64,000 nt of DNA from Alphaproteobacteria bacterium (GCA_015062385.1 SUUT01000004.1:8433-72432), one strand, 5' to 3'; positions 2,374 through 26,665 are shown, counted from the first letter of the stretch. The notes: a model not told the origin generated them from the letters alone. Program-made: numbers and translations.

Positions 2374-5300
2374 TTATTCCACTTTTAAAAGGACCATACA
2401 AATATCATCTTTATCATAGATAAGTTGTTTGTTTTTTTCTATGTTTTCTAGTTTCAATAATAGATTAGATTCCATTTTTCGGAATTTTCCCTCGTTTGCA
2501 GGTATCATTTTTTCTTTATGTTCACTGATAAGTTTTTCGCGTAGCATATTAAATTTGTTACGTTTATCTTCTAAGTGATTTTCAATTGTCTTTTTCTGTA
2601 ATTCAGCACGATCGAAGTTTTTATTTTCTATTTTTTGAATTTCTTCATCATATTTTTCCTCATTTATTCCTAGAATTTCCGACGCTAAAGTTTCAAGTTC
2701 TTGATAATTAATTCCACCACGATCCGTCCAATCCAGTCCATCAGAGACAGCATTCAATATTAATTCCTCAGATAAATCATCTGAAATCGTCTCTTTTGAA
2801 TGTAAATCATATCCTGAGTATAGTATTTTAGCATAATGAGTTATTCCCTGGGCAGATACAAATGAAGCGCCAATTAAATATTCCCCTTTATTTTCTCCTT
2901 TAATACGTATGGCCGCACAAGGATATGTTGAAAAATCAATGTCTTTTATTTTTTCACGTAAAAATTTAATGATAGGATGTGTCTGATTTATAATTTCTGA
3001 ATTAGGAGATGATGCTGTTATTTTATTATTAAAAGAACATATTATATTTGAATAGTTTTGTAATATTTTAGAGTGAGAACCATACCCATTTCGTTCACAG
3101 AACTGCGAAAAATCACTGGCAAAACTAACGGGAAATGAAATAGTGTATTCATTTTCATTGTGTGTTTTACTAGATAATACTGTCGGATAAAGCTTTCTTA
3201 TCGTTCTAAGAACATAAGAAGATAAATCTTTTGCTGTGATTTTTTTTCCTTGTTCTGCTTGTATTCGTTCCAAAATGTAATCACCATATGCAGCAAGTTC
3301 AGCCGCACTGCTTTCTAATTTTTCATTTTCAATTTTTTTATTTATAATAGCTCGTTCAGTCTGCTCGATCTTTTTGCTTTGTTCTTCAGGTGACAATAGT
3401 AATAAGTTTAATGATAATTGCTTAAACATATCGCCAAGAACGACTTCAAAATCGCCTAAAACACTGGTACAAATATTGAATTTTGTATATAGTTTTTCAT
3501 AAATTCTAGCATCAATAGTACTATCGTGAAATAAATTCCATATGAGTATTTTATCAGATTTTTGTCCTATACGATCAAGACGGCCTATACGTTGTTCAAC
3601 TCTCATTGGATTCCATGGAAGATCATAGTTTATAAGTAAGCGACAGAACTGTAAATCTACACCTTCACTACCAACTTCAGATGCCAATAGTATTTTGATA
3701 TTTTCATCTTTTTGGAATTTGGATAATACTTCATCTTTACTTTTAACTTTTCCAGTTAAAAGTATAGAATCTATATTATGTTCATGTAATCTTGTATGTA
3801 AATATTCCAGAGTAGGTATGAAAGAAGAAAACAATACAATTTTTTCATCATGATACTTTGCTTGCATATCTTTTATTGTTTCTAAAAGTCTTTCAAATTT
3901 GGTATCATTTTTGAGCAATTCTTTTTCATACTTGAATTTTGATATTTTGTCGTATATGGCTCTCATAAAGTCACTAGGCAGTTTTTCTTCATCTATGTTT
4001 TCTATATCTTCATTATAGATATTCGCATTTTTTTCTTTCCAAGATTGTAAAGTTGAATATAAACAACTTGTTAACATTCGTTGCGGTTGACATAATAGAA
4101 AAAGGGTAAAACCAGGACCAGCTCCCATAACATTATTTTCAGCGTACTCATGAATAGATTTAGTAACTGTATCATATAATTCTTGTTCATATATACTCAT
4201 TTCTATTTTTTCAGGAATTGCTTCTCGAACAGCTCTGAATTCATGAACATCTCTTTTTCTTGTTCGATTATATATGTATCCAATGGAATTTATTTCATCT
4301 AATTCATATGCAATTTCTTGTGATTCTTTGAGCCCTATGGGAGCTTGTTTTTTCTTAAGTTTTTGAATAAGGCTTTCTAATTGTTTGCTATCCCTCATTA
4401 TACCAAAATGATCTGAAGCTTGAATATCTTCTAAAGCTTCTATAACTTCATCATTATTTAAATGAGAAGAAATTAATCTTTTTCGTAATTGAACTAATTG
4501 TTCATTGTTTTTTAGCATTCTATCAAAATATTCTTGGATGGGAAAATGATCTTCGTCTAGTATATTAACCAAAGAGAATAGGTCATCCGTTTTATTTTGA
4601 ATTGGAGTTGCAGATAGAAAAACAGCATAATCAGAAATTTTTCTTAAGAGGTTAGCGCACTTATGAGCTCTTGTTTCTGAATTTCTTAGATAATGAGCCT
4701 CATCTATAATAAGCATGTCAATTAGTTCTTTATCATCTTCATAGTATTTTGCTAGTTCTGCTTGTATTTGTTCGGAAGCCATTCCTTGCATGCTACAAAT
4801 TAAAGCAAAATCCTCATCTGAGTTTATTCTTTTAACAGCATCAGATGCTTTGACAATTTCTGCTTTTACACCAATTTTATTTCGTAATTCTACACGCCAT
4901 TTTTCACTTAAAACTTTTGAGCAAACAATAAATAATCTTTTAAAATCATATCGTTGTTTTAATTCAGTCCATATAAGTCCGGCTTCAATTGTTTTACCTA
5001 AACCAACTTCATCGGCAATTAAAATTGAATTAGATGGAGAGTTTATAATTTTACATACTGGTTTAAATTGATACGCATAAAAATCTGTGTTAGTAACATC
5101 CATACTATATATGATATTACTAAGATTTCCATTGATTCTTGTTTGTGTTATAACTTGGCGAACATCGTTAGCTGATGAGAATTTATTCATGCCAATTAAA
5201 TCCGGTAATGTATAACTTTCTATTGTTTGTTGTAATTCTAGTTGATCTTCAGGAATTTGTTGTAAGATACCATTATTAAATTTGATGGGCCAAATTGTTC

Positions 5301-5388
5301 TGTTTAATCTTATTTTTGAGGTACCATGAATTGTTCCAATTTTAGATGGATTTGATTTTAAAACAACAACATCTCCAATATTAAACAT
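2374..5388 (-). CDS. SNF2-family helicase/ATPase (1004 aa) with small N-terminal beta-rich domain and ~350-aa C-terminal extension
   Basis: Motifs are ADEVGLGKT (I), LIIDEAHYLRN (II), LSATP (III), and GSEGVDLQ plus WNPMRVEQRIGRLDRIGQ (V/VI). An AAGGA RBS lies 7 nt before the ATG at 5388. Confidence 0.85.
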   Translation of the reverse strand: MFNIGDVVVLKSNPSKIGTIHGTSKIRLNRTIWPIKFNNGILQQIPEDQLELQQTIESYTLPDLIGMNKFSSANDVRQVITQTRINGNLSNIIYSMDVTNTDFYAYQFKPVCKIINSPSNSILIADEVGLGKTIEAGLIWTELKQRYDFKRLFIVCSKVLSEKWRVELRNKIGVKAEIVKASDAVKRINSDEDFALICSMQGMASEQIQAELAKYYEDDKELIDMLIIDEAHYLRNSETRAHKCANLLRKISDYAVFLSATPIQNKTDDLFSLVNILDEDHFPIQEYFDRMLKNNEQLVQLRKRLISSHLNNDEVIEALEDIQASDHFGIMRDSKQLESLIQKLKKKQAPIGLKESQEIAYELDEINSIGYIYNRTRKRDVHEFRAVREAIPEKIEMSIYEQELYDTVTKSIHEYAENNVMGAGPGFTLFLLCQPQRMLTSCLYSTLQSWKEKNANIYNEDIENIDEEKLPSDFMRAIYDKISKFKYEKELLKNDTKFERLLETIKDMQAKYHDEKIVLFSSFIPTLEYLHTRLHEHNIDSILLTGKVKSKDEVLSKFQKDENIKILLASEVGSEGVDLQFCRLLINYDLPWNPMRVEQRIGRLDRIGQKSDKILIWNLFHDSTIDARIYEKLYTKFNICTSVLGDFEVVLGDMFKQLSLNLLLLSPEEQSKKIEQTERAIINKKIENEKLESSAAELAAYGDYILERIQAEQGKKITAKDLSSYVLRTIRKLYPTVLSSKTHNENEYTISFPVSFASDFSQFCERNGYGSHSKILQNYSNIICSFNNKITASSPNSEIINQTHPIIKFLREKIKDIDFSTYPCAAIRIKGENKGEYLIGASFVSAQGITHYAKILYSGYDLHSKETISDDLSEELILNAVSDGLDWTDRGGINYQELETLASEILGINEEKYDEEIQKIENKNFDRAELQKKTIENHLEDKRNKFNMLREKLISEHKEKMIPANEGKFRKMESNLLLKLENIEKNKQLIYDKDDICMVLLKVE

Positions 5389-5546
5389 CTATTATCCTTG
5401 TTCAATTTAAGTTGATAGTAAATAAGCTATATAAGCATAACCCAAAGTTTTATAAATTACAAGGTTCTAGCACTATTTTTTCTTAGATTGACTGGACTTA
5501 TTCGTTTTTCTAAGCATTCATTGTCTTGTGACGAAAGGAGTTCATT

Positions 5547-5861
5547 ATGGAAACAGTTAAAGTTTATATGGTGCGAAAACCTTCGGATTTTGAAGAAGTA
5601 AAAACTTTATGCAAAAAGTATACGCATGAGGCCGAAGAGGTCTTAATTGAAGAAACTGTCAACCTACCACCAACTTGGTATGAGGAGTTTTGCCAACGCC
5701 CATTGGATAACTACATTTTCTTATCCAGTAAAGGCGGTTATGATGATACAGGCCACCGCAAAGTAGTTGCTATAAAATGCCTAGGCAAGCCAACGCTTTA
5801 TGTTGATCCTTCCGGTTCAAGCTATTGCCGATATATGGGAGTGGAAAATGAAGACCTATAA
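5547..5861 (+). CDS. Hypothetical small protein (104 aa), mobile-element type
   Basis: ATG is preceded by AAAGGAG. No family is recognised with confidence. The ORF overlaps the next small ORF. Confidence 0.45.
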   Translation: METVKVYMVRKPSDFEEVKTLCKKYTHEAEEVLIEETVNLPPTWYEEFCQRPLDNYIFLSSKGGYDDTGHRKVVAIKCLGKPTLYVDPSGSSYCRYMGVENEDL

Positions 5862-6060
5862 AGACATTCCACCTAATCACAAAATCAGCATGCCGATGGT
5901 TTATAACCACGCAATCAGAGTACTTGATAGACTGGATAGACGACTGAGCAGACTTAACATCCCAGCGCTACCAATTAAATATAAATACGAAATCAATCGT
6001 CTTGCACATAAACTGGAACAAATGGTCGCTAAATACAAAGCCATTGAGAAGGAGTTGTAA
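5848..6060 (+). CDS. Hypothetical small protein (~70 aa)
   Basis: The internal ATG at 5848 has a GGAG RBS and overlaps the stop of the upstream ORF (translational coupling). The track ORF starts at 5800. Confidence 0.35.
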   Translation: MKTYKDIPPNHKISMPMVYNHAIRVLDRLDRRLSRLNIPALPIKYKYEINRLAHKLEQMVAKYKAIEKEL

Positions 6061-6111
6061 TATGTCCGAACCAAAATATCAAAAACCTAACTTTACAGAT
6101 CATATAGTAAA

Positions 6112-6684
6112 TTATTGAATTTGTCTTAACGATATATTGTAATCGTATGATGTTATAACAACTCTGTTAATTTTAATATATTTACCAAAATCTTTATCTG
6201 TGTTTTTTAATTTATCATTTATGGTTTCTTGTAAATTATTTAAATTAAGGAATCCTGTTTGTTTAGTATCTAAGAAACATTTTGATAATAGTAAGTGCAC
6301 CTGATTTGACACAAAGAGATATAATGGGTTTATTTGATTATTAAAATCATTATTTAGTTCATAAATTACTTTAGGGTCTATTATACGAAATTCTACTTGA
6401 GTATCAACTACAACGTTATAAGGTACAGTTTTAATATTATTACATCCAAAAGAGTGGGCTGTGCTATTAAAAGTTTGACAGCGTATATCAACAATATCAA
6501 AAGTTTGAAAAAAAGGAAATTTCCAACAAAACCTCTCACCATTTTCATAAATTTTAGTCGGTTTTCCACATGTTTTTTTTATAATATTAAAACCTTCATG
6601 TCTAAAATATAGTGGCCATATATATTCCAGGATAGTATTCCAAAATTTTAATATTAATTCCGCAAAACTTAGTGTATTATCCAT
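6112..6684 (-). CDS. SPFH/Band-7 (prohibitin-like) domain protein
   Basis: The pattern ...FPFFQTFDIVDIRCQTF...VVVDTQVEFRIIDPKVIY resembles the SPFH core (Pf..v..vd.r.q ... v.vd..v.yrI.dp). The ATG at 6684 has a GAGGTG RBS; the track ORF starts at a TTG at 6699. Confidence 0.45.
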   Translation of the reverse strand: MDNTLSFAELILKFWNTILEYIWPLYFRHEGFNIIKKTCGKPTKIYENGERFCWKFPFFQTFDIVDIRCQTFNSTAHSFGCNNIKTVPYNVVVDTQVEFRIIDPKVIYELNNDFNNQINPLYLFVSNQVHLLLSKCFLDTKQTGFLNLNNLQETINDKLKNTDKDFGKYIKINRVVITSYDYNISLRQIQ

Positions 6685-6712
6685 ATTTTCACCTCTCAAC
6701 GTATTCTTTATC

Positions 6713-7171
6713 TTACAATTTCAAATACTTCAAAAACGCATCACAACCTTCAACGATATCCCAATAGGTTTCATCAAAGTTACCGGTGTACCAAGGGTCT
6801 TTGATATTGCGGGGCTTATTTGCAAAATCTAGCAAGCGATGAATTTTATTATCCGTATCCACGCCAACGATAGATTGAATATCTTCAACATTACTATCAT
6901 CCATCGCTAAGATATAATCATAATACGCATAATCAGATGGCCGAATACGACGAGAATAATGTTCTTCAAAAGGAACGTGCATAGATTTCAACATCTCATG
7001 CGTACCATAGTGAATACCGGCATGACACATTTCATTATATCCCTCGGTGGCGGCAGAATCAATTTCAAACCGGTCAGCTAAACCGCTTTCCTCAACCATT
7101 TGCTTAAACACAAACTGCGCCATCGGCGACCGACAAATATTCCCTAAACATACAAACAGAACTTTAATCAT
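6713..7171 (-). CDS. Low-molecular-weight protein-tyrosine phosphatase (ArsC-like fold)
   Basis: P-loop VLFVCLGNICRSPMA (CX5R-S) lies at the N-terminus and the DP acid loop (IKDPWY) near the C-terminus. The start is 2-12 nt after the HNH stop. Confidence 0.85.
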   Translation of the reverse strand: MIKVLFVCLGNICRSPMAQFVFKQMVEESGLADRFEIDSAATEGYNEMCHAGIHYGTHEMLKSMHVPFEEHYSRRIRPSDYAYYDYILAMDDSNVEDIQSIVGVDTDNKIHRLLDFANKPRNIKDPWYTGNFDETYWDIVEGCDAFLKYLKL

Positions 7172-7182
7172 GATTTCCAATA

Positions 7183-7779
7183 TTATCCAAAATGTCTTTT
7201 CCTATGGCAGTTGGGGCAAAGGGCCACCGTATTTTTAAGAGTATCTTTTCCTCCTTCTGATAAAGGCTTTATATGGTGGACTTCAAGATAAGGAGTTCCA
7301 TCGCTTTTTCTGTTAAAGGGGGCTTTTTGTTTACAATCTTCACATATACCATTTGCTAAATAAAGTCTTTCTGCCACAACATCAGGATTTCTGATAAAAG
7401 TATTTGTAATTACTTGTTTTATAGTAGTTTTAGAAGTGTTTTTCTTAAGCCTTTCCAACCTTGCATCATGACTATCTTTGAACGACAATGTAATTGCACT
7501 GGCAAAATTACTGACATTAATGTTACTAAAGAACCTAAAATAATGATTAAGTCCAGCAGAATACATATGATTTCCTATGCTATCAGTTTTTATAAAATCA
7601 GTGCTATTTTGAGAATTTTTCAGAATAATCAATAAATCATTTACGTTATCGCAGCTATAAATATCTTTATTTATTATACTCTTTACATACGAAGGTACTT
7701 GTTCTGAATATTTTTTAACGGATGCTGAAGAAAGGCCTAATTCTGTTAAGTATTTTTGAAACTCACTTTTTAAATCCAT
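7183..7779 (-). CDS. HNH endonuclease (probable restriction partner of the adjacent C5-methyltransferase)
   Basis: C-terminal CEDCKQKAPF...LEVHHIKPLSEGGKDTLKNTVALCPNCHRKRH is a canonical HNH/zinc-finger motif. The ORF overlaps the MTase stop by 17 nt. Confidence 0.8.
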   Translation of the reverse strand: MDLKSEFQKYLTELGLSSASVKKYSEQVPSYVKSIINKDIYSCDNVNDLLIILKNSQNSTDFIKTDSIGNHMYSAGLNHYFRFFSNINVSNFASAITLSFKDSHDARLERLKKNTSKTTIKQVITNTFIRNPDVVAERLYLANGICEDCKQKAPFNRKSDGTPYLEVHHIKPLSEGGKDTLKNTVALCPNCHRKRHFG

Positions 7780-8905
7780 TTTTAGATCCTTTTTGATACC
7801 TATTTAACTCTCTTAGTACCATTTCTGCCATTTCTTTAATTACTGGTATTGTTACGGAATTCCCAAACAGTTTATATTGTTGGGTATCGGAAACTTCTGA
7901 AGGAAAGCTAAAAGTATCCATACCTGTTTTTTCATTCTTAAAAGCATAATTAACGAAACCTTGGAGTTTTCCCCATTCAACCGGCGTCATAACACGCACA
8001 AATTTATTATTAATAGGAGTTTGTTTCTGTCCGTACATTTTTCCGGTATATTTTTCACCGTTTTTCTTATCAAATATCAGATTTCGTTCTTTTCCTGATC
8101 CTCCCGTAGCTAAAATTGTATTAGCTATAGGATGTTCAATATTCTCGGCATTAACTATTCTGTAACCGAAACCATTACCTTTATTTTTCTCTCTAACGGC
8201 ATGTTTTTCTAATGTTTCTAAGTATCCTTGTGACATAAAAAACTTGTCGGAAACTTCTTTTTCCAGCAGGTCATTTAAGTCCGTATACAGTTGTCCCTTT
8301 CTTTTAGATGGAATATGATCTGGTAATTTGATATCAGGATATTGTTCCAAATCGAACCCTATTATATATACTCTCGGACGATTTTGAGGAATACCGAAGT
8401 CCTTTGAATTTCTGATAAAATCCTTAGGGTTATAAATAATGTTTCCGTTGTTTTCTTTTTTAACACCGATTACTTTATAATTTAGCTCAGTCAATCTTTC
8501 CAATATTATTCTGAAAGTTCTTCCGCCATCATGCGTAGTCAAGTGGTCAACATTTTCTAAAAAGACAACTTTAGGACGTTTCTTACTGCGTTTTATTATA
8601 TCTAAAATATGGAAAAATATTGTCCCTTTTACAGTATCTTCAAATCCTGCTTTTTTTCCAGCTCTACTGAATGTTTGACAAGGAAAACCTGCCAATAATA
8701 CATCATAGTCTAATTTGGAACACTTATCTTTGAATTCATCTGAAGTAAGATCATTCCTTGGATTTTCTTTGTATAAATGCTCATAAGTCTTGCTGGCGTA
8801 TTCATCAATTTCTGCAGATAATACGTTTTCAAAACCTCCTGTCATTTCAAATCCTTTACGAATTCCGCCTATACCTGCGCATAAATCTATTGTTTTATAT
8901 TTCAT
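7763..8905 (-). CDS. DNA (cytosine-5)-methyltransferase
   Basis: Motifs are DLCAGIGG (I), GFPCQTFS (IV), FLENV (VI), QNRPRVYIIG (VIII) and GNSVTIPV (X). Confidence 0.92.
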   Translation of the reverse strand: MKYKTIDLCAGIGGIRKGFEMTGGFENVLSAEIDEYASKTYEHLYKENPRNDLTSDEFKDKCSKLDYDVLLAGFPCQTFSRAGKKAGFEDTVKGTIFFHILDIIKRSKKRPKVVFLENVDHLTTHDGGRTFRIILERLTELNYKVIGVKKENNGNIIYNPKDFIRNSKDFGIPQNRPRVYIIGFDLEQYPDIKLPDHIPSKRKGQLYTDLNDLLEKEVSDKFFMSQGYLETLEKHAVREKNKGNGFGYRIVNAENIEHPIANTILATGGSGKERNLIFDKKNGEKYTGKMYGQKQTPINNKFVRVMTPVEWGKLQGFVNYAFKNEKTGMDTFSFPSEVSDTQQYKLFGNSVTIPVIKEMAEMVLRELNRYQKGSKNGFKK

Positions 8906-9317
8906 GATCTTTTCCTAGTTCTTTAATAATTTTTTCAAAACACTCTTGAGGATTTCTTATAATTTCTTTACCCCAGAATCTTAATACTTTCCATCCGTTA
9001 TTTTCAAGTTTTTTATTAACTTCTTCATCTCTTTCTATATTCCTTTCTATTTTGTTTACCCAAAAATCCTTATTTGAGTGTATTTTGTTTTTATTCTCTG
9101 TCCATTTATAACCGTGCCAAAACTCACTATCACAGAAAATAGCGACCTTCTTACTTATGAATGCAATGTCAGGTTTCCCGAACACTTTGGAGCAGTTCTT
9201 TCTGTACCTATAGCCGTTTTCCCATAATATTTTTCTTAAGGCCAATTCAATTTTACTGTCCTTATTTCTGACTGCTTTCATGTTTTTATGTCTTTGTTCC
9301 GGGGTAATCCTATCCAT
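8895..9317 (-). CDS. vsr: Very-short-patch repair endonuclease
   Basis: TPEQRHKNMKAVRNKDSKIE...GKPDIAF...FCDSEFWHGY matches the Vsr family. The gene lies next to the C5-MTase, as is typical. Confidence 0.85.
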   Translation of the reverse strand: MDRITPEQRHKNMKAVRNKDSKIELALRKILWENGYRYRKNCSKVFGKPDIAFISKKVAIFCDSEFWHGYKWTENKNKIHSNKDFWVNKIERNIERDEEVNKKLENNGWKVLRFWGKEIIRNPQECFEKIIKELGKDHEI

Positions 9318-11395
9318 TAAATTTTAACCCCCATATTTTTGGCTTTTTCATAAAGTTCATACAGTATTTGGGCTTGTTTTTCACTTGGAGGAAGAAGATA
9401 TCCTTTTGCCATTTTAGATAAAATCTCAAATTCTTTAAAACCGCAAAAAGCTCTGTTTTCATTATAAAATGTCACTAATTTTCCCCACACGCCAAAAGGA
9501 AGAGTTACCACAAAACTTTGGCGCTCTATAGTATTATCTATAGCTTGTTGTTTTTTTGCTTCTTTCTTTTCGTATTTAACAGTTTCTCTAGCAGTAGTTA
9601 TGGCATCAAACAAATAATCAGGAATATTAAAAATTAATTGCTGTATTTCTTTCCACGTATATTCACGACTGAATTTTTCACGTAAATCAGCTTCATTTTC
9701 TTGTGATTCAATATACTCTCTGATTGTGTTTATGCATATGTTAAGTACTTTTTCCAGATCTTCCGAGACATCTTGTCTATTCCATATATCGGCATAATTC
9801 AAATATGAATTTTGCTCTTTTACATATTTATACAATATTGCCAAAGCATATGCTTTAATATATGCTCTAACAGATTTTCTGCTTTTTGCCCATTCGGCAT
9901 TTTTAATAAGATTATCTGTTTTATTGGTCAGAATAATCTTAGCAATAGTTTCTTTAAAATAAGCTTCATTTATAGATAGATTATCTTTTTCTAGCATTTC
10001 TTCTATTTGCTTTGCAAATTTTGGAAAAGCTTGATTTGTTTTTGTTGACAAATACGGGGAGTTGCTGAATATCATTTCTGTCTTAGCTAACAAGTGCTTA
10101 TCAACCATTTGTTCCTTAGGATAACGCAACATAAATTCTTTTTCTTTACCATCTCGAGTATATTTGGCCTTTTCATTCAAGTATTGACCGCGAGTTCGTT
10201 CATAATACCATTTATTTTTAATTTGTTGACCACCGGACATTGGGGCCCATATTCTTTCAGAAAGCTCTTTAAATGTTTTATGGAATGGACTGTTCGAGAA
10301 AAAGTCGGATTCTTTAACCGGATTTTGACTATTGGCATATCTGGCAACTTTGCCTACAAAATCAGCATACTCTTCCTCTTTAGAAACTACGGACAATTTC
10401 ATTTGAACAAAAATATTTTTTATATCGAGTTTATTTTTATAACAATTATATATTACAGAGGTTGTTTGTCCTCCGTTCACTATTTGTAATCCGTTTAATC
10501 GAACAATTTTTAATACATTATCTTGCTTTTCAACTTCAATTGAAGATGCGGTACATGTCAACCCGTTATTATAAGCAAAAAAGCGCTCAGGTTCCTCTTT
10601 TATTGTAATCTGCATTTTTTTGTTCGTATTTCCTTTGAATTGTAAAAAGGTTCGAACATTTTGTTCTAATAATTTTTGACCATATTGATCATATATTTGA
10701 GCTAATATATCTCCAGGCATAACTACAAGATACGAGGCATAATCTTGAGCTTCTAATGAGGCAGGCAAACATAAAAGTCCTTTATCTGTATAATCGCTTA
10801 TGGACACCTCAATTTCTTGTAAATTGTTTTCTTGTGTTGATATTCTGTGTATATCTTTCAAATCAAAAACCTGAAAATCAGCTCTCAATCCTTTAATCGT
10901 TTCAAACGGAATAACTTTTGTATTTCTGGTTAATGTGCCGTTTGTAATAATTAAAAACATAATGCGTTGAATTTTACCAGAGTAAAATAATTCATATATA
11001 TACTTTGTCGATTCAACAGCCTCATCGGTAGGAGACATTATGGAATATAAGGGAGAACTTGTATTAACCGTTTCTTCAAAAAAGAGTTTCATTTTCTTAA
11101 ATTTACGTTCATACATATCCTTTGTAAGTGTTTCAATTTGTTCACCCGGAAAAAACTGACTTCCGATAATGGTCAGCAATTTACGTTCTTCATCATATGC
11201 ATAACCGGCAAATTCAATGTCTGATTGAATGTATTCACTCCAGGTGATATCTGCGACATCTCCGTCCTGCTCCAGATAACTTCCTATTTTTTGTGTAAAA
11301 ATCTGTGCTTTCGAAGCATCCTTATCTACCTGAAAATCAGTCAAAGCATCTTGGTAAAATCCTTGGTAAAAATCTTCTAATTGCATGTCTGCCAT
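9317..11395 (-). CDS. AIPR-family (abortive-infection phage-resistance) protein
   Basis: 692 aa with the central FAYNNGLT...IVNGGQTT signature of AIPR proteins. The stop overlaps the vsr start, and the start overlaps the upstream stop (TAATG). Confidence 0.7.
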   Translation of the reverse strand: MADMQLEDFYQGFYQDALTDFQVDKDASKAQIFTQKIGSYLEQDGDVADITWSEYIQSDIEFAGYAYDEERKLLTIIGSQFFPGEQIETLTKDMYERKFKKMKLFFEETVNTSSPLYSIMSPTDEAVESTKYIYELFYSGKIQRIMFLIITNGTLTRNTKVIPFETIKGLRADFQVFDLKDIHRISTQENNLQEIEVSISDYTDKGLLCLPASLEAQDYASYLVVMPGDILAQIYDQYGQKLLEQNVRTFLQFKGNTNKKMQITIKEEPERFFAYNNGLTCTASSIEVEKQDNVLKIVRLNGLQIVNGGQTTSVIYNCYKNKLDIKNIFVQMKLSVVSKEEEYADFVGKVARYANSQNPVKESDFFSNSPFHKTFKELSERIWAPMSGGQQIKNKWYYERTRGQYLNEKAKYTRDGKEKEFMLRYPKEQMVDKHLLAKTEMIFSNSPYLSTKTNQAFPKFAKQIEEMLEKDNLSINEAYFKETIAKIILTNKTDNLIKNAEWAKSRKSVRAYIKAYALAILYKYVKEQNSYLNYADIWNRQDVSEDLEKVLNICINTIREYIESQENEADLREKFSREYTWKEIQQLIFNIPDYLFDAITTARETVKYEKKEAKKQQAIDNTIERQSFVVTLPFGVWGKLVTFYNENRAFCGFKEFEILSKMAKGYLLPPSEKQAQILYELYEKAKNMGVKI

Positions 11396-11396
11396 T

Positions 11397-12350
11397 ATTT
11401 TTTCCTTTCAATCAATTCTTTGACAGCATATTTTGACATATCCGTAAAATTAATATCGTATTTCACATTTGAGATACATTCCAGAATATCTGTTACCGTT
11501 ATGCTCGGAAATTCATCGGTAACATTGTAATAAGTTACAGAAACATCTTTAACGGATACAAGGTTTTCGTATAAAAGTCCGGGTTATAACCGACCGACAA
11601 AAGTTTTTGCTCAAATACAGTAACAAGATTTTCTTTTTCGGCTCTTATTTGTTGTATTAATACGGATATAATATCCGCGAGATTGTCAGATGAGGTATCT
11701 TGAGCAAACTTATAACACACAAGAAATAAATCTTTGCTTTCTCGTGCCAGTTGCTGTTCATTCGAAATATGAACTCCGTTTTCATCATCAAAACAAGCCT
11801 TAACCTCGGCAAAAAAATCATCAAACATAAAATCTTTGTCAGCTCTTTCCGGACCTTGCCATGCTGCCAGTAATTCTTCATATGTACGAGAATATTCCGA
11901 ATGCATATATTGCAAAAATTTTAATTCCGCTATTAAGCCTATTTGGGTTCTGATATCAATTTCTTTCTTTTTCAGTCTTTGTAAGAATTTCATCCATTGT
12001 TTCATCCTTACAAACAGCGCATCTGCATATTTTTGCTTATCATCATAAACGGGGACGGATACCAGGTCTTCTCCGAAGCGATTAAAAATCTCAATATCGG
12101 CATCTTCACGCAAAGAAAGAGCAAAAACTGATTTCCCGTTCACGTCTGCTAAATTAGCATCAGCTCCGCTAAAACGAATTTGAGCAAGATCTATATGCAC
12201 AATGCCGTTAAAATTTATTGTAAGACCATACTTTCCGTTTTTCAAACAAACCCACCATATATCAGATTTAATATCTGGTGAAGCTTTAATTTTTTGTCCT
12301 TCAGATAATGATTTCCAAGGGATTGTTGTTGAATTATCATCTTTATTCAT
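11397..12350 (-). pseudogene. DUF4420-like PD-(D/E)XK protein with C-terminal frameshift (~11540-11585)
   Basis: ORF 11535-12371 stops, but a second frame stays open from ~11585 to the TAA at 11397. That frame reads ...VSVTYYNVTDEFPSITVTDILECISNVKYDINF..., a plausible family C-terminus. The shift lies in a TTTT/AAAA-rich stretch. The likely start, ATG at 12350, overlaps the Z1 stop (ATGAATAA). Confidence 0.5.
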
Positions 12351-15156
12351 ACTCATTCTCCACGTCATCACTACTTTCTTCCTGTTCTCTTATCTCTGCT
12401 CGCAATTGTTCTTGCAGTATTTTATTGTATTTAAATCCCATCAATGGATTAAATTTTGGTTTTTCAAAACTTCCGGGAAAACTAAGCGAGAAAAAAGGAA
12501 AATTCTCTTTAACCAATATTTTTTCTTTATACTTTCTATCTTCTTTACTCATATGTTCGTATAAATCAAATATATTTACAATAAGTAATGGATCATTCCT
12601 TTCGAGCCTTAGATTTTCTCGTGTTATTTCTTTAGGATACTCTTCCTTAAGTGATCCAAATTGTTCTTGTTTTTTATCTGATACAGCAAAGGATCTTTTG
12701 TCGTTCTCTAATTTATCAAAACGTGTAAACTTACAAAAAGATATATTACTCCCAGATAATTTTACTTCATTTCCATTTTGAGCATAGGGTAATACCACAC
12801 GCCAATTATGTTTTTTATTTTCTTTGATATACTTAATTAATAAATCAGAATCATTAATATTGTTAAACGATTTTGGGCATTTTTCTATTAATCCAATAAT
12901 CTTTTCTGCGGGAACATTCAACCAACGATAGCAATTTTCTGGGTCATCTGAATTATTTATTTGAGAAACTGTTTCTGGAGTCCCAAGTTGCGAAATAAAA
13001 TTTTCTGCAGTAGAAAAATAATTTGCTACTTCATCCATTTCTGAACGATTATATGTTCCTTTCTCGCGGATATGTCCATCTAAAAAGACCCCATTATCTT
13101 TATTTGCATTATACATTTTGTTTTTAGCGGTTAAAATCATTTGCGTTGCAGGATGTTGAGATACGGTAACTAAAAATTCTGTCGGAGTTTTTCCTGCTTT
13201 TTCCATACTCTTTACACAATTAACCAAGGAATTTGTTGAAATCAAGGCATTATGAAAATTATCATAATACTTTTCAGTAGTATATACTTTACATAAATCG
13301 TCATAATCACGTCTATATCCAAACCACCGCCCCATTTGTAAAAGTGTATCACACATCTTTGTATTTCTTAAAAAATAGCTCACACTGAGATTTTCTATTG
13401 TAAATCCTCTGGCTAAACTATTACCACCAACTGCTATCATATTAGTTTGGTGTTCAGAAGAATATTTAATAGATGCTTCTTTTGTATTAGACATACCGAC
13501 ATTAATACTAGCTACGATGTTTGGAAGTTCCGGAAGCATTTCATCAAAATCAGGAGTATCAAATTTTGGTGATGAAGCCCAATCACCTTCTAACATATCT
13601 TCAAAAATTTTTTCTAACGGAGCTATATATTTTAAGTATTCCGATGTTCCTTTCATCCCTGCATAATTTCTTATATTGTTTTCCAAATCCAAAAGGTATT
13701 TGGTTACTTGTTCTTTTATTGTACTATGCATATCAACCAAACAACTGACATGAATCAGCATGGAATTGTGTTTGTTTGCATATCCACGATGATTACGAAC
13801 GTATATATTAAAGATAAATAAGTTTATAGCTTCTTTAAGAGTCCTAGGTAAATCATCAACTTTATGACATGTAACACCTTTTTTCTGCTTTACCGGAAAG
13901 TATTTTTGCCAATCTTCTTTCGCTTCACCTGTATTTTCTTCCGTAAGTAATCTGATATATTCAGATTCTTCAGCGTTTTCAGGACCGAAAACTTTTTGTG
14001 GACCGAAATAATTATCAGGAGAAACCAGAGAAATAATAAAATCACTGGGATACAAATCTCTATCTTCTGAATTTTCCGCAAGCATAGGATCTATAAAAAT
14101 GTTTGCAAACGGAGTTGCTGTAAAACCTACATAAGCACTCTTTTTGAAGTTTTTTAAAACTGATCTTATTTTTTTATTTATTGCCGTTACTTCATCATAT
14201 TCTTTCTTTGTGTTAACAGATGCATTATCAGCTTCATCATCAATCAATAATAAAGATTTTTCAGACAAATCTTTACCGTCCAACCATTCAATAAGACGTT
14301 GCAGCACTGTCGTATTTTTTTTGATTACAAAAACAAGCGGAGATGTGGTATTATTTAAATTCGTTTGGTTTTGAGCTCTGCTTGAAGTAGTCTTAAAATC
14401 TCCGCTCATACGTTCGTTTGTCATGGCAAATGGTCTGAGCCTTTCCAGCTCACTCTTATCTTGCCCTCTATAATCTGTAACTGTTCCTTCGGTACAAGGT
14501 TTTTCTGGGATTTTTTCCGGTTCATCTCTATTTAAATCCGTCAGTCCTACAAAACCGCAGTTTATGCGAAATTGAGTTTGTTTTCTTAATAGAGAGGATA
14601 TACCAGCGATTATAATAATAATTTTGTATCCGGCATCAGCCGCTTTTGCTACAAGCGCAGAATAATTTGCCGTTTTACCGGATTGAACCGAACCGATAAC
14701 CATACCGCGACGCGTTATTATATCTCTAATATCCGGATTGGTCGGATCAAAAAGATAATTCATTACTTTATCACTTCTTTCATCAATCCGTTCAATAACA
14801 TCAGCTGGTAATTTGTCTTTTTTCAAAAGATACTCTTTATAGGAATTCCAATAATAATTCCTGCCATCTTTTTCACGAGTTTCAGCTGAGTCAGTCCACC
14901 AAGTGGATTTAATTCTTGTTTCAAATAATTCTGAATCCTCATCAGTCATGGTTACAGCATAAAAATGTAATAACTCTGATACTGCTCTTAAAGCATCCTC
15001 ATCAGATATAGTTATATTATGTCTTTTTTTATATCTATCCCTTGTATCTTGGACGACATTTTTTATATCCGCTTCCGTTATACTGGTTACATCTGTGAAA
15101 TTAAATGTTATTTCGGCTTTTACCAGATTTACGAAATTTTCATAATCGCTAGTCAT
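12343..15156 (-). CDS. Z1-domain P-loop NTPase
   Basis: Walker A GSVQSGKTANY and Walker B LLIDDEADNAS in a ~940-aa protein. Its context between GHKL and DUF4420/AIPR genes is typical for Z1. The probable start, ATG at 15156, overlaps the upstream stop (ATGACTAG). Confidence 0.65.
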   Translation of the reverse strand: MTSDYENFVNLVKAEITFNFTDVTSITEADIKNVVQDTRDRYKKRHNITISDEDALRAVSELLHFYAVTMTDEDSELFETRIKSTWWTDSAETREKDGRNYYWNSYKEYLLKKDKLPADVIERIDERSDKVMNYLFDPTNPDIRDIITRRGMVIGSVQSGKTANYSALVAKAADAGYKIIIIIAGISSLLRKQTQFRINCGFVGLTDLNRDEPEKIPEKPCTEGTVTDYRGQDKSELERLRPFAMTNERMSGDFKTTSSRAQNQTNLNNTTSPLVFVIKKNTTVLQRLIEWLDGKDLSEKSLLLIDDEADNASVNTKKEYDEVTAINKKIRSVLKNFKKSAYVGFTATPFANIFIDPMLAENSEDRDLYPSDFIISLVSPDNYFGPQKVFGPENAEESEYIRLLTEENTGEAKEDWQKYFPVKQKKGVTCHKVDDLPRTLKEAINLFIFNIYVRNHRGYANKHNSMLIHVSCLVDMHSTIKEQVTKYLLDLENNIRNYAGMKGTSEYLKYIAPLEKIFEDMLEGDWASSPKFDTPDFDEMLPELPNIVASINVGMSNTKEASIKYSSEHQTNMIAVGGNSLARGFTIENLSVSYFLRNTKMCDTLLQMGRWFGYRRDYDDLCKVYTTEKYYDNFHNALISTNSLVNCVKSMEKAGKTPTEFLVTVSQHPATQMILTAKNKMYNANKDNGVFLDGHIREKGTYNRSEMDEVANYFSTAENFISQLGTPETVSQINNSDDPENCYRWLNVPAEKIIGLIEKCPKSFNNINDSDLLIKYIKENKKHNWRVVLPYAQNGNEVKLSGSNISFCKFTRFDKLENDKRSFAVSDKKQEQFGSLKEEYPKEITRENLRLERNDPLLIVNIFDLYEHMSKEDRKYKEKILVKENFPFFSLSFPGSFEKPKFNPLMGFKYNKILQEQLRAEIREQEESSDDVENEYE

Positions 15157-16630
15157 ATATTTCTCCAAGCTTTTTATCAATTAAATTTTCGGCATTAACA
15201 TAGTATTCATCTGCCAAAAGTATTTTTCTGACTGTTTCTTTATCTTTTCCCATGTTTTTGTATTCAGTAATTTCTTCCACCAAAATATTTTCATCTACGG
15301 TTCTTTCTTTGACCGAATACGGATCTGTCGTCATCAGGGAGTGTAATTGTTCCTTCGGATAGCATTCCTCGAGACAAGCCAGATATCCTTTCAGACGCTG
15401 TTTTTGTTCAGTAGTCATGTTTTCGATTAATGCTTTATACCGCGGATGCTCTTCATTAATTCTGAATTCGGAAGTATCATTAAATATAACTTCCTTCCAG
15501 TAGCATTCTTTTGTTTTCTTGGAAACTATACCAGAAGCTTTATGTACCTTTTTTGATTTATCAATCGGGACGTTTATGTAATGGGATAAAATTTTTCGGA
15601 TTTCCAAATTCGGAAAAGCCGTAGATTTTTTAACATCTATTTTCCATTCTTGATCCTGATAAACATCAACATCTATTCTTATTCGGACAAGATTGGATGC
15701 GTCCTTAATGCAAGATAAACCGAACCATGTACCGTAAATCAGTAAGCGGCCTTGTCTGTATAAATAAAACCCTTGTGATCTGGTAAAACCTTCAGTAGTA
15801 GCCAATTCTTTATATTCACTTTGGGAGAGTTTATTCAGAGGCGGGAGGATGTAAGGAGTAACAGAGAGGCTCGTACCGTTAGATAATGTGTATTCATCGG
15901 TTTGAGCCTGCATTCCGGATCGGGCTGTATTTTTATTTTTGGATGTAAAAGGATCAAACGGGTCAATTCTTGTATTATTAAAATACAATTTAACCATTTG
16001 ACCGTTAAATCCGGGAAAACCTAAATATCTGTGAAAAGTTAAAGCCAAATGCTTCCTGGCATTTTTCAGTTCTTCATCAAACTCTTCTTCAGAATACCTG
16101 TCTATTTTTTCCCATAAAATCAGTGAAGCATGCTGTGTAGAATAAAATTCTTCAAATATTTGCGGGCTCATTTCATCCAGTTTGGATTTTAAATCATCAA
16201 CGGATGCTTTTTGTAACAACCAGTCATCTTTTTGAGAAAGGAAGTCCAAATCCCACGTATATCCCGAAATTGTTTGGTCACATTTTGAAAATACCGTTAA
16301 TCGCTTGCATTGTGAAAAAGAAGCTGTTTTTAACCCTAAACCGAAACGCCCCAAATCATTTTTAGCCCTGGTTTCCTTTTGTGTTCCTAAACGCATGGCT
16401 TCCTTAAGCATATCATCCGACATGCCTGTTCCATCATCAATAATAACGAGTTTATCAGTAGAAGGTAACGCATATATTTTAATGTTTTCAGCATTGGCAG
16501 AAATGCTGTTATCAATTAAATCTGCTAAAGCAGTTTCAAAGGAATATCCTATATCTCTCAGGGAAGAAAGAAACACCGAAAGTATCGGGCGTATGGTCAG
16601 ATTGTCAGAAGTAGTATCTTTATTTGTCAT
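15149..16630 (-). CDS. GHKL (HATPase_c_3 / MutL-MORC-like) ATPase
   Basis: Bergerat-fold motifs are ALADLIDNSISANA (N box) and IIDDGTGMS (G1), followed by GRFGLGLKTAS. Confidence 0.8.
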   Translation of the reverse strand: MTNKDTTSDNLTIRPILSVFLSSLRDIGYSFETALADLIDNSISANAENIKIYALPSTDKLVIIDDGTGMSDDMLKEAMRLGTQKETRAKNDLGRFGLGLKTASFSQCKRLTVFSKCDQTISGYTWDLDFLSQKDDWLLQKASVDDLKSKLDEMSPQIFEEFYSTQHASLILWEKIDRYSEEEFDEELKNARKHLALTFHRYLGFPGFNGQMVKLYFNNTRIDPFDPFTSKNKNTARSGMQAQTDEYTLSNGTSLSVTPYILPPLNKLSQSEYKELATTEGFTRSQGFYLYRQGRLLIYGTWFGLSCIKDASNLVRIRIDVDVYQDQEWKIDVKKSTAFPNLEIRKILSHYINVPIDKSKKVHKASGIVSKKTKECYWKEVIFNDTSEFRINEEHPRYKALIENMTTEQKQRLKGYLACLEECYPKEQLHSLMTTDPYSVKERTVDENILVEEITEYKNMGKDKETVRKILLADEYYVNAENLIDKKLGEIYD

Positions 16631-16841
16631 TAGTTGCTCATTATTTTTTAATCAGAATACATATTATTCTATATTATACGAAATCAAAAAGCAAGGAATA
16701 AATCAGAAAAATCAAGAAGGTAACTGGGAATTTGTTGAGGATTTTCTAAGCTATTGTCTTAATATGATTTTTCTGTTTTAGAGTATGGGGTGTGTTTTTC
16801 TAAATGATTTCAGATACATAAAATAGGGCCTATTTTCCAAA

Positions 16842-16945
16842 GTGACCAGCTAGAAGTGGCCAGTGACCAGCCAGAATTTTTTATACCCCATTATAACCCT
16901 TGTGTTTATTGGGGGGTGGGATATACCCGACCAGCCAGAATTTTT
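16842..16945 (+). repeat. Short direct repeats (GTGACCAGC x2; GACCAGCCAGAATTTTT x2)
   Basis: GTGACCAGC occurs at 16842 and 16863. GACCAGCCAGAATTTTT occurs at 16865 and 16929, each followed by ATACCC. Confidence 0.6.
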
Positions 16946-17071
16946 CTGTTTCGCTAGAAATATGGCGCGGCTTGCATCCCCGCATATGGTCTATCGACAG
17001 GAAGGACCCGTTGGCATTTTTACCCCCTAAAAAGGAGTGACTATCTATACCCAACTGGCAGTTATGGTCAT

Positions 17072-17210
17072 GTTAGTATGATACTATCCGCCAAAATCGG
17101 GCAAAATATGAGATAGTATGTAGATACTATGATACTATCCGTTAATTTGGCGAAAAACCAGAGATACTATCTTGTTAGTATCATACTATCCTTAAACTCA
17201 GAAACTATCG
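17072..17210. promoter_or_regulatory. Iteron-like cluster (>=8 copies of (G/C)ATACTATC in both orientations)
   Basis: Direct copies start at 17080, 17123, 17131, 17163 and 17182, with a degenerate one at 17202. Inverted copies start at 17072, 17112 and 17174. The cluster lies immediately 3' of the Rep-like gene. Confidence 0.6.
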
Positions 17211-17254
17211 CTAATTTGGTATTTGGAATAGGGCAGATTTGTTTATCACCTCCT

Positions 17255-18046
17255 TTACAAATATTCGCCGGTTTTGTGGGTGTGGCACAGGGCAAAGTGC
17301 CAACCGTCCAGTTTCTTACCGCTTCGTTCACACCAACCGTTAGCTACGTAATAACTATAAAAGCCTTCTAGGTTGATATGGATGTTCTTTTCGGCCACAT
17401 ACCGTTCTAACTCTGTCCAGTCCGGTGGTAGTTGTGTGAAGTGATACTTGAACTTTGCGCCCACTCCTAATCCTTGCCGAGCCAAAACATTACTAAGCTC
17501 AACTAAACCACCGCCGGTTCGTTTTTGTTCAAAAATCTCACGTCCGACTAATTTCTTTTCATTATTTACATTATTACCTTGTTTTCTTTCTTCAGTCGTT
17601 GGCGGATAATCGGCGATTAAATGGCTATCATCCAGCGAACAAGTGGCGGTGGGGTCTGGCGTAATATCCTTAAAGCCCTGATATTTATTATAGTTAATGA
17701 GCCTGACAAGTGTGGCACATCCGATACGCGTTGTTGTAATATCATTGGTGCGTTTCAGTTTGTTGAGCAGTCGTCTGATTTGCTCCTTGGATTTATCCAA
17801 AGTTTCGGCCAATCTCATATGGCTAATGACGACTTCACCCCGATGAACGATAATATCCTTAAAGGGCTTATCTTTGAAATTTGCCGTCAGCATCAGGTGG
17901 ATATATAGTTACAAAACATTTGCGTCCGAATACCAATGCCAATCTTGAAAATCGCGGTAGAACTTAATAAATCCACCTTTAACAACTTCCTTTTTGTTAG
18001 AAGACAAAGAGGTATTGTCAGACTTATGGTGTATCATATCTGTCAT
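17255..18046 (-). pseudogene. Phage/plasmid replication-organiser-like DNA-binding protein with one in-frame TAA (17909-17911)
   Basis: The ATG at 18046 (AGGAG RBS) opens 45 codons ending ...GFIKFYRDFQDWHWYSDANVL. A TAA follows, and the same frame continues LYIHLMLTANFKDKPF... into track ORF 17255-17893. The joined N-terminus matches the GFIK.hR....W.WY.D.N...f.hLLl.AN pattern of replisome-organiser proteins. Confidence 0.55.
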
Positions 18047-18077
18047 GAGAAAACTCCTGTCTTAAATTTCCGTGAAG

Positions 18078-19679
18078 TTATATTTTTTTGCGTTGTTTGA
18101 CCCAAATTGGTGGAATTTCCTCTTTTAAGATAAAGTCTGCCGGTTGAGTGCCTGCCAAAACGGATTTAATAATATCCGGCGCCAATGAAGTTAAACGAAG
18201 AATACGTCCCAAATAACCGGCATCCAGTTCTTCATGTAACGATAGTTCGGCAATAGTCATTCGACCGGAGGTTAATATCTTTTGATACTTAAACGCTTTG
18301 GAAAGGGCTTTGATAAGCTCTTTATTTGGACAAGAGTTTTGAATTAATGCTTCCGGAACTGTCACCTGTAATACACCATGCGTTCTGGAAAGAGGGACAT
18401 CTATCGTCATAACGCCATCTTTGGTTTGAGGAGCGTATTTATCCGGTAAAATATCCAGCGCCAAAGCAGTCCATTTGATTTCCAAATTATCACATTGAAC
18501 GGTAATGTTTTCAATTAACTCTTTGACTAAAAGTGATTTATCAAGTTCGCTCATCTTTGCCAAGACCTTTTCGGGATGTTGCATAATCTTAAACAGCTCT
18601 TTGGTTTTGTTGGGTGCAATTTGCTTGATAAGTCCGTTTAGAATATGTGCATCTTTTAACATTGGTGTGATAATTTGTATAATTGCTTCATCAAGAACAG
18701 CCACCGCCACCGAACCATTATGACAAGTATGATAGCCGTAGTATTTGACTTTGGTCGAGGTGTAATAATAACGCCTGCGACCATGTCCCATACTGACAGT
18801 TGGTGTCATTCTGGTATGGCAACAACCACAAGTTAAAATGCCACGCAAAATGCCGACTTCGTTTTTCTTGTACAAGCAAGAGCGTTTGGCCACATCTTTA
18901 CTGGCTCTGATTTCGGCAACTTTATCAAATGTGTCTTAATCTATAATGGCCGGGTGTTGTCCATCATACAGTTCATTTTTGTGTTTGACTTTGCCAAGGT
19001 AAACCGGATTTTTGAGTAAGCGTTTTATCATCTCTCGGCGGTATTCTATACCGTATTTATCTTTGACAAGCTTGCAAACTGCGGTAATGGATTTATGTTT
19101 TAGGTAACTTTCAAACATAAAGCGTATCATTTCGCCTTCTTCCGGTTTAATTTTGAGCTTTTTGTTGATAGCAATATAACCGGTCGGAACAGCACCGCCC
19201 ATCCACATACCTTTCTTTTTAGAGGCTGCGACTTTATCGCGAATACGCTTACCGCTGACTTCACGTTCAAACTGAGCAAATGAAAGTAAGATATTGAGCA
19301 TCAAACGGCCCATGCTGTCAGCAGTGTTGAAATTTTGTGTTACCGATACAAATGAGCAGTTGTTCTTTTCCAATATCTCAATCATTTTAGAAAAGTCAGT
19401 TAATGACCTGGTTAACCGGTCTATTTTGTAAACGACAATCATATCAACTTTGCCGGCATTGATGTCTTCTAACAGGCACTCTAAGGCAGGTCTATTCATA
19501 TTACCGCCGGAAAAACCTCCGTCATCATAATGTTCCGGAATGATTTTCCAACCTTGATGTTTCTGACTTAATACATAATTTTCACCGGCTTCACGCTGAG
19601 CTTCTAATGTATTAAACTCTTTATCCAACCCTTCTTCGGTTGATTTTCGGGTATAAATGGCACAACGAACTTCTTTCAT
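18078..19679 (-). pseudogene. Large serine recombinase with one in-frame TAA (18936-18938)
   Basis: The N-terminal resolvase domain has AIYTRKSTEEG and VYKIDRLTRS. The sequence ...GQHPAIID is followed by TAA, then the same frame continues DTFDKVAEIRASKDVAKRSCLYKK...CGCCHTRM (recombinase/zinc-ribbon domains). Frame continuity was checked codon by codon. Confidence 0.85.
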
Positions 19680-20960: not shown

Positions 20961-21983
20961 TTATATTATTTCCCAATGACCACCTTTATCCGGTCCGATA
21001 CGGCGAATTATACCTTCTTTTTTCAATTTATTAAGATTCCATTTTATACCATCAGGTGTTAATCCTATTTTTTCAGCTAGTTCTTTCCTTGTAGCCTTAG
21101 GATTACTTTCTAAAATTTTCAATATTTTCTGGGTAGTTTCTTGGGTGGCTTTCTGGGTAGTAACACTATCTTTTATTTGCATTTCACGATTGTCTAATAC
21201 ATTACTTTCGCCTAATAGTAGATTTCCAAAAAATTTATTTAAGAATTCCATTGTATAGGGAATATCTTTTCTTAAGTTTTGGTAATTTGATCTAACTAGA
21301 GCATTACGAAAATATTTAGCATGTTTTTCAAACAAATCATTATTGGCATCAAAAACCAGTGTATGAAGGTATTTAATAACAAAGACAGCTGGTGTTCTCG
21401 TATTGCCTTCTCCAAAAGGATGAATTTACCATATACCAGATACAAACTTTGCTAAATGCTCAACTTTTTCTTTTATAGATAACCCTTTATAAATGAACTT
21501 TTTTTCTTGTGCGAAATCATAATCTAGAGTTTCACGTAAACTGTCAGAGCGACCATAAATAACAGTATCTCCATTCAAGATAGGTTCTTCTTTTGTTATA
21601 TCGTATGTACGGATTTTACCAGCAATTTCATTATCTAATATTCCTGTAAATAGAACTTTATGAATAGAAAGAAGTTCGGTAGGACTAAAAGAAAAAGTGT
21701 GTGTCGCCAATAGTTTATTAATACGTGATGAAACCTCATCAGCCTCTTGTTCTTTTTCTTGTTCTACGGTCTGTGCAGGATTTTGTTTGTAATAGTGACG
21801 AATTTGTTTTACAGCTTCATCAGTTGAAATTTTACCTTCAATATTGTCTTTAGCTACTTCTATAAGGTATTTTGAAGGAGTTAAACCATCAACCAGTTGG
21901 AGACCAATAGCAGCCCCCCAGTTCTCAGCTTTTTTTGCCTTTTCAGGTTCACCTTGCTTTTTATATTCTTCAAAATTATCCAT
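20961..21983 (-). pseudogene. Fic-domain protein with C-terminal wHTH, one in-frame TAA (21426-21428)
   Basis: ...AKFVSGIW is followed by TAA, then the same frame continues IHPFGEGNTRTPAVFVIKYLH... (Fic motif HPFxEGNxR) and runs into track ORF 20961-21335. The C-terminal KATRKELAEKIGLTPDGIKWNLNKLKKEGIIRR looks like a wHTH. Confidence 0.8.
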
Positions 21984-26590: not shown

Positions 26591-26665
26591 GACCCTATCA
26601 TCTAGCGGTTAGGATACAGCCCTCTCAAGGCTGGCACACGAGTTCAAATCTCGTTAGGGTCGCCA
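26591..26665 (+). tRNA. tRNA-Glu (anticodon CTC)
   Basis: 75-nt cloverleaf with acceptor GACCCTA/TAGGGTC. The anticodon stem CAGCC/GGCTG carries loop CTCTCAA. T-loop TTCAAAT and an encoded CCA are present. Confidence 0.88.

Follow-up and report, generated by a model that had tools for sequence, protein, structure and literature searches.

The closest described systems to the locus analysed here are Mza and the paraMORC/MORC-Z1 operons. Miller et al. 2022 (PMC9523054) name mzaABCDE, with reference to Gao et al. 2020, among systems reported to have been validated experimentally against phage. Iyer, Abhiman & Aravind 2008 (PMC2292703) described a third type of MORC operon in neighbourhoods with DCM, VSR and AIPR, and Miller et al. 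2022 (PMC9523054) call the Dcm-linked form a "putative defence system, type II"; both descriptions are computational only. Here, we describe a locus of this class in a 64,000-nucleotide stretch of DNA from an Alphaproteobacteria bacterium (GCA_015062385.1, SUUT01000004.1:8433-72432; hereafter the window, with positions counted from its first letter). Open reading frame (ORF) calls and direct reading of the minus strand at 7183-16630 give seven consecutive ORFs that overlap or abut. The locus belongs to the catalogued, mechanistically unsolved class of anti-phage restriction operons and is not itself a new kind of system. The new element relative to the earlier descriptions is the seventh gene, a recurrent McrA-type HNH nuclease. 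Neither Iyer et al. 2008 (PMC2292703) nor Miller et al. 2022 (PMC9523054) lists such a nuclease in a Z1-type operon, and Iyer et al. 2008 (PMC2292703) name HNH only with SWI2/SNF2-type operons and paraMORC1. With a probability of roughly 0.6, we favour the reading that the locus is one two-layered defence operon in a mobile defence island, in which an NTP-dependent restriction-modification (R-M) system of the Mza-like/paraMORC-Z1 kind is combined with a Type IV-like HNH nuclease. The genes, in the order of transcription, are:

15149-16630, minus strand, MORC/MutL-like GHKL ATPase (MzaB-like, paraMORC class; Pfam HATPase_c_3, 4e-37)
12343-15156, minus strand, Z1-domain superfamily-II helicase/translocase (MzaC-like; Pfam Z1, 2e-65)
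11535-12350, minus strand, DUF4420 PD-(D/E)XK nuclease (MzaD-like), truncated by a frameshift to 271 residues (Pfam DUF4420, 1e-39)
11395-11579, minus strand, C-terminal remnant of DUF4420, out of frame (DNA and protein alignment with the related loci L001 and L002)
9317-11395, minus strand, AIPR protein (MzaE-like; Pfam AIPR_N, 8e-23, and AIPR, 7e-86)
8895-9317, minus strand, Vsr very-short-patch repair endonuclease (Pfam Vsr, 2e-25)
7763-8905, minus strand, Dcm-family C5 cytosine DNA methyltransferase (Pfam DNA_methylase, 2e-67)
7183-7779, minus strand, McrA-family HNH nuclease (Pfam HNH, 2e-14)

All seven proteins score above the Pfam gathering thresholds, in agreement with the families assigned in a preliminary description of this DNA (GHKL, Z1, DUF4420, AIPR, Vsr, methylase and HNH). 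Several lines of evidence connect the first four, hereafter the quartet, to the described systems. First, in PADLOC and NCBIfam they are homologous to MzaB, MzaC, MzaD and MzaE, and they stand in the same order (PADLOC E-values of 1.7e-62 for GHKL, 8e-108 for Z1, 1e-11 for DUF4420 and 7.5e-45 for AIPR; Z1 also matches Helicase_II at 3e-42). Second, the gene families are those of paraMORC/MORC-Z1 type 3 of Iyer, Abhiman & Aravind 2008 (PMC2292703): the window has the GHKL motifs DLIDNS, IIDDGTGM and GRFGLGLK, a Z1 helicase with Walker A (GSVQSGKT) and Walker B (LLIDDEAD) motifs, a restriction endonuclease (RE)-fold nuclease, here frameshifted, and a linked methylase and Vsr. Third, the C-terminal helicase motif reads DTLLQMGRWFG in the window and DThhQXuRhFG in Iyer et al. 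2008 (PMC2292703). The GHKL ATPase also has PDB sequence matches to MORC2 (~3e-5), and the PDB search with Z1 returned no sequence relative. The preliminary description had placed the quartet only as a neighbourhood known from comparative genomics; this was too narrow, since PADLOC and NCBIfam name it Mza-like and mza is cited as validated.

The locus also differs from Mza. Mza has a sigma-factor-like MzaA, which this locus lacks; neither Pfam nor PADLOC recognises the 212-residue ORF that lies upstream of GHKL. In a Thalassospira locus with an mzaE annotated by NCBI, a sigma-70 family gene stands at the MzaA position. Moreover, the window locus has Dcm, Vsr and HNH, unlike Mza. The upstream 212-residue ORF is kept in the related loci L002, L037 and L038.

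On the fold of AIPR, two reviews conflict, one giving it an N-terminal HEPN domain and the other a ParB-like nuclease, and neither is confirmed here. Our search returned >5,000 AIPR homologues, and an NGGQT motif is invariant in AIPR alignment A3. The top Foldseek matches of the AlphaFold2 (AF2) model (predicted local distance difference test (pLDDT) 82.7) are weak and fall on the nuclease domains of MspJI, McrC, Shedu and FokI, which may hint at an RE-like N-domain but is not a result. PDB sequence searches with AIPR and DUF4420 gave nothing usable.

Vsr scores 151 bits against NCBIfam TIGR00632 (cut-off 97.85) and the methylase 252 bits against NCBIfam dcm (cut-off 100.65), with the motifs DLCAGIGG, GFPCQ, ENV, QNRPR and GNSV all present. 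The closest solved full-length relative is the Shigella/E. coli Dcm (3lx6/3me5, 2.5e-40). Full-length alignment of the methylase and an overlapping Vsr are features that the window has in common with the classical E. coli Dcm-Vsr pair and with methylase-Vsr-restriction enzyme (M-V-R) Type II systems; unlike the classical pair, the one in the window lies within an operon of seven genes, two of which encode NTPases. The full-length likeness to E. coli Dcm could point to a CCWGG-like target, which we offer as a lead only. Palindrome depletion in the window did not single out a target (CCWGG 0.59, CCNGG 0.53, GGCC 0.61, GATC 0.49); many GC-rich palindromes are similarly depleted and, therefore, the palindrome test has no discrimination.

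Is the methylase part of the quartet system or a neighbour of it? A contig scan with one protein gave only three close relatives, and plasmid tblastn and look-ups of proteins supplied the wider context. The quartet is accompanied by a C5-methylase in every close relative, all of them gut alphaproteobacterial loci, and the link persists down to ~31-47% identity. Quartet and C5-methylase occur together at L033 (AIPR 47% identical) and in Oceanobacillus iheyensis (AIPR 41%), as well as on Thalassospira, Hymenobacter and Rhizobium etli plasmids. A core of Z1 and PD-(D/E)XK stands next to a methylase in Rhodovastum, where no AIPR is annotated, and in Priestia, where neither AIPR nor the GHKL ATPase is annotated. 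Terribacillus is the sole plasmid locus examined without a methylase. In L032 (1107-2617), an AIPR that is 81% identical to that of the window is followed by a Dcm of only 26% identity and an inverted Vsr of 41% identity, which, judged from these identities, is a non-orthologous displacement of Dcm and Vsr. Such a replacement argues that the function, and not merely the gene, is required. AIPR and Z1 genes also lie in the Prevotella intermedia operon of an active m5C methylase (GCWGC) that lacks a recognised restriction enzyme and has been classed as "orphan". Altogether, the evidence argues that the methylase belongs to the quartet system: apart from Terribacillus, quartet and C5-methylase co-occur in close relatives and distant taxa, and the tie to methylase and Vsr survives an exchange of both genes for non-orthologous ones.

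The HNH nuclease has a different profile of relatives. Its motif layout is CxxC...HH...N...CxxCH, PADLOC assigns it to mREase_IV (6e-23), and residues 122-197 match EcoKMcrA (6ghc) both in sequence (1.3e-21) and in fold (6.9e-9). The top Foldseek matches of its AF2 model (pLDDT 88.8) are EcoKMcrA, ScoMcrA and TagI, all modification-dependent; these Type IV enzymes have an HNH catalytic domain with paired CxxC motifs, as does the protein in the window. By contrast, the N-domain, confidently modelled as seven helices, is a bundle of ~115 residues with no detectable similarity to the McrA 5-methylcytosine-binding, SRA or SBD domains, and on its own it has no meaningful Pfam match even at E<=10. 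The McrA/Type IV-like catalytic domain argues for a separate specificity rather than for a second blade of the same enzyme. The preliminary description saw in the locus a methylation-linked multi-enzyme system with two nuclease folds; the methylation link stands, and for the HNH nuclease a specificity of its own is suggested instead. In one homologue, P0011 (339 residues), an extra N-terminal domain of ~140 residues, unrecognised by Pfam, precedes the shared helical domain; by eye it is PUA/EVE-like, as a candidate only.

In every HNH-bearing locus examined, the nuclease (53-63% identical, 99-100% coverage) holds the seventh position while the flanks differ, and these loci include the most abundant operon type (an AIPR cluster of 159 members on 183 contigs). 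All close homologues examined adjoin Dcm. A more distant one, in Pseudomonas sp. SCB32 (37% identical, 97% query coverage), lies by an Mrr_cat gene and without a methylase. Of the seven genes, HNH evolves fastest, and its N-domain does not co-vary with the variable region of Dcm: between the window and L008, Dcm is 90% and the HNH N-domain 43% identical, and between L008 and L016 the HNH N-domain is 69% and Dcm 66% identical.

HNH is absent from L001, L002, L026 and L029. L001 and L002 are the closest relatives of the window locus, with a methylase that is 90-93% identical. The slot after the methylase holds a 922-residue protein and DUF2130 in L001 (17408-20176), an OLD-family AAA_15/TOPRIM nuclease in L002 (17440-19098) and a 771-residue ATPase in L026 (13643-15958), and is empty in L029. 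The slot genes of L001 and L026 encode large ATPases that differ from each other; both have PHP-like N-termini and no Pfam family or only P-loop matches. Thus, the preliminary description of a "dedicated" HNH nuclease has to be revised: the gene is not obligatory, being conserved in one sub-lineage while the closest relatives have other genes or none and a distant homologue stands alone. Most likely, HNH is a Type IV-like add-on cassette that is kept co-transcribed in this sub-lineage. The slot looks like a hot spot of cassette exchange bounded by Dcm and by the following gene:

6713-7171, minus strand, low-molecular-weight phosphotyrosine phosphatase (LMW-PTP), downstream flank (Pfam LMWPc, 3e-35)

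This gene follows whichever cassette fills the slot in L001, L002, L004 and L026, and we do not consider it part of the system but a conserved downstream flank.

Exchange has also occurred within the operon. Compared to the window, L015 has a Z1 of 99%, a DUF4420 of 93%, a methylase of 69% and an HNH of 55% identity, and it has almost the same GHKL, AIPR, Vsr, Dcm and HNH as L012. This mosaic of alleles indicates recombination inside the operon. The most variable parts of Z1 are the first ~60 residues and residues ~720-780.

Building on what is observed here (families, motifs, synteny, a methylase link that recurs, a slot after Dcm whose content varies and a real frameshift in DUF4420), we suggest the following model, in which self-marking, the roles of the four quartet proteins, the order of events and the HNH specificity derive from what is known of the families and from Iyer et al. 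2008 (PMC2292703). In the first layer, the Dcm-family methylase would mark host DNA at its target sites, and Vsr would repair the T:G mismatches that arise from deamination of 5-methylcytosine, thereby limiting the mutational cost. The GHKL ATPase, Z1, DUF4420 and AIPR would form the restriction machinery, which would recognise unmethylated incoming DNA, clamp or translocate it with ATP and cleave it. In the second layer, the HNH nuclease would, independently of the methylase, most likely target foreign-modified DNA that escapes the first layer.

Several observations weigh against this model. All quartet proteins fall below the NCBIfam equivalog cut-offs for Mza, reaching ~20-30% of the threshold (275 bits versus 850 for MzaB, 447 versus 1500 for MzaC, 88 versus 420 for MzaD with the repaired protein and 222 versus 1050 for MzaE). 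As Miller et al. 2022 (PMC9523054) describe it, canonical Mza does not have a methylase among its defining genes; that self is recognised by methylation is, thus, something that we infer from gene linkage. In the literature searched, we found neither a published mechanism for Mza nor an experiment on the Dcm-linked subtype, which agrees with the preliminary description of a quartet beside a Dcm-type methylase and Vsr without an established mechanism. A Foldseek search of the PDB with the AIPR model gave nothing below E = 0.1. The HNH N-domain does not resemble known modified-base readers in Pfam or in Foldseek, where the matches are dominated by the HNH part. The HNH-bearing operons all come from related low-GC gut alphaproteobacterial metagenome-assembled genomes or metagenomes, and shared ancestry could explain the constant position of the gene even if it has no functional tie to the rest of the operon. 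Finally, the putative Type IV role draws on two things only, the kinship of the catalytic domain and one stand-alone homologue.

A reading to which we give even odds is that the locus in this strain is a non-functional relic, in which only the methylase, Vsr and perhaps HNH act and which is kept by inertia or for the sake of the methylase. R-M systems usually decay by losing the nuclease and keeping the methylase, and DUF4420 is interrupted in a manner that would fit this path. Its ORF ends at 11535, and the last 62 codons run in another frame to the start of AIPR. DNA alignment shows a 1-nucleotide deletion (a missing C) at 11579/11580, where the window reads CCCGG-ACTTTT and L001 and L002 read CCCGGCACTTTT. 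The out-of-frame remnant has a 90% match in the C-terminal part of the L001 and L002 genes, which are intact and encode it in a single frame, and re-insertion of the base gives a DUF4420 of 318 residues, the same length as intact homologues. The C-terminal frameshift noted in the preliminary description is, therefore, a deletion within the region it had flagged (11540-11585). Every relative checked, HNH-free or HNH-bearing, has an intact DUF4420 of 318-320 residues. Four independent assemblies (L036-L039; one from the Joint Genome Institute and three ENA samples) carry the 9448-base-pair operon, with its deletion, at 100% identity, indicating a real, fixed mutation of a circulating strain.

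Two other sources of the frameshift were considered. The four independent assemblies rule out an assembly error, and programmed frameshifting is unlikely because the relatives all encode DUF4420 in one frame.

A second lesion that speaks for a relic lies in the recombinase of the island:

18078-19679, minus strand, island large serine recombinase with an in-frame TAA (Resolvase and Recombinase in one ORF, Zn_ribbon_recom in the next)

The stop (~18936-18938) replaces a Gln of L002 in the same frame, and the resulting products of 247 and 243 residues are called likewise in L037; the island is probably immobilised. With DUF4420 truly broken, this strain probably has a copy of the locus in decay, and the frameshift together with the recombinase nonsense codon appear as signs of decay of this copy of the island. 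Against a complete relic, the remaining six genes are undamaged and retain every catalytic motif, and the truncation, which costs approximately the last 50 of the 318 residues, spares the D...EVK motif (DFMFDDFFAEVK) of DUF4420, which lies upstream of the frameshift. Probably, restriction by the first layer is impaired in this strain while methylase, Vsr and HNH are intact. The relic reading concerns the state of this copy and not the nature of the system, and is compatible with the two-layered explanation.

It is doubtful that the locus consists of two neighbouring systems, i.e., a methylation-independent Mza-like quartet and a Type II R-M system in which HNH is the cognate enzyme of Dcm and Vsr a companion. 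This reading can appeal to canonical Mza, whose definition in Miller et al. 2022 (PMC9523054) includes a sigma-factor-like MzaA but no methylase. It can also appeal to loci in which a classical enzyme lies between the quartet or its core and the methylase (a "restriction endonuclease" in Thalassospira, an AlwI-family enzyme in Priestia) and to the 17-nucleotide overlap between the HNH start and the Dcm stop in the window. Moreover, Type II enzymes with an HNH fold are known. However, methylase and Vsr, 90-93% identical, are attached to the quartet without a recognisable restriction enzyme in L001, L002 and L029 and, more distantly, in R. etli, L033 and O. iheyensis, and the non-orthologous displacement of Dcm and Vsr took place beside the quartet. 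The HNH domain itself is nearest to modification-dependent enzymes, its distant homologue has no methylase nearby, and the HNH N-domain and the variable region of Dcm do not co-vary.

Alternatively, HNH could be an integral second nuclease whose N-domain docks onto the machinery of Z1, GHKL ATPase and AIPR, so that PD-(D/E)XK and HNH both cut and other lineages swap in other effectors, such as the OLD nuclease or the PHP-ATPase. We consider this improbable. The seventh position and the close coupling are kept while HNH identity falls to 53-63%, the all-helical N-domain matches no DNA-reader fold, and the slot occupants of relatives are also of nuclease or ATPase type. However, the slot is empty in L029, distant systems of quartet and Dcm lack any such gene, and the stand-alone Pseudomonas homologue implies a self-sufficient protein. 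Genes for OLD and PHP-ATPase proteins are, in addition, typically free-standing in island hot spots, which argues against them as parts of this machinery. Distinctly unlikely is the extended version in which HNH is an exchangeable second effector that the MORC-like ATPase/Z1 machinery recruits via the helical N-domain, the slot being an effector socket with HNH, OLD nuclease and PHP-ATPase as plug-ins, and in which HNH might sustain activity in this strain although DUF4420 is broken.

Direct reading of the junctions agrees with the earlier claim of seven minus-strand genes with overlapping or abutting stop and start codons. GHKL and Z1 overlap by 8 nucleotides (ATGACTAG), as do Z1 and DUF4420 (ATGAATAA); TAATG marks the junctions between the DUF4420 remnant frame and AIPR and between AIPR and Vsr; and the overlaps are 11 nucleotides for Vsr/Dcm and 17 nucleotides for Dcm/HNH. 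Translation of Z1 probably starts at 15156 (ATG); the mechanically called ORF opens with a TTG at 15180. LMW-PTP starts 11 nucleotides past the HNH stop, and a Band7 gene follows ~28 nucleotides past LMW-PTP; with the tight packing running on into these two genes, spacing alone cannot delimit the functional unit. Scans of 5300-18200 for promoters and terminators gave sites no more numerous than in shuffled sequence. The putative operon status, thus, draws on the overlaps and on conserved synteny rather than on signals. Between the GHKL start and the upstream 212-residue ORF lies a stretch of ~620 base pairs (16631-17254) without a convincing ORF, which is likely a promoter or regulatory region.

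Systems of a MORC-like ATPase, Z1, DUF4420 and AIPR are widespread and have been linked computationally to the origin of the eukaryotic MORC chromatin ATPases. The lineage described here is a natural comparison set, with operons that have or lack HNH, varied slot occupants, swapped Z1 and methylase alleles and one nuclease-defective copy, and this set could help to tell apart what the methylase, the quartet and HNH each do.

Other genes of defence type surround the operon. Downstream, at 2374-5388, lies a 1004-residue SNF2 helicase with a full-length match to PADLOC DrmD (7e-221) and a score of 378 bits against NCBIfam DISARM_DrmD, under the cut-off of 610; no DrmA, DrmB or DrmC was seen near it. 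The helicase is followed by two small ORFs without a Pfam family, at 1894-2370 and 1134-1913, of which the latter has a weak PADLOC match to PDC-M61B (6.5e-07). Upstream of the operon are a PDC-S72-like gene (21426-21983), AbiEi (22741-23331), a HATPase_c_4/Fic-like_C protein (23617-24573) and a Schlafen AlbA_2 gene (24570-25064). A second C5-methyltransferase, of 666 residues, is encoded at 26928-28928 in a GC-richer segment by a tRNA-Glu (26591-26665).

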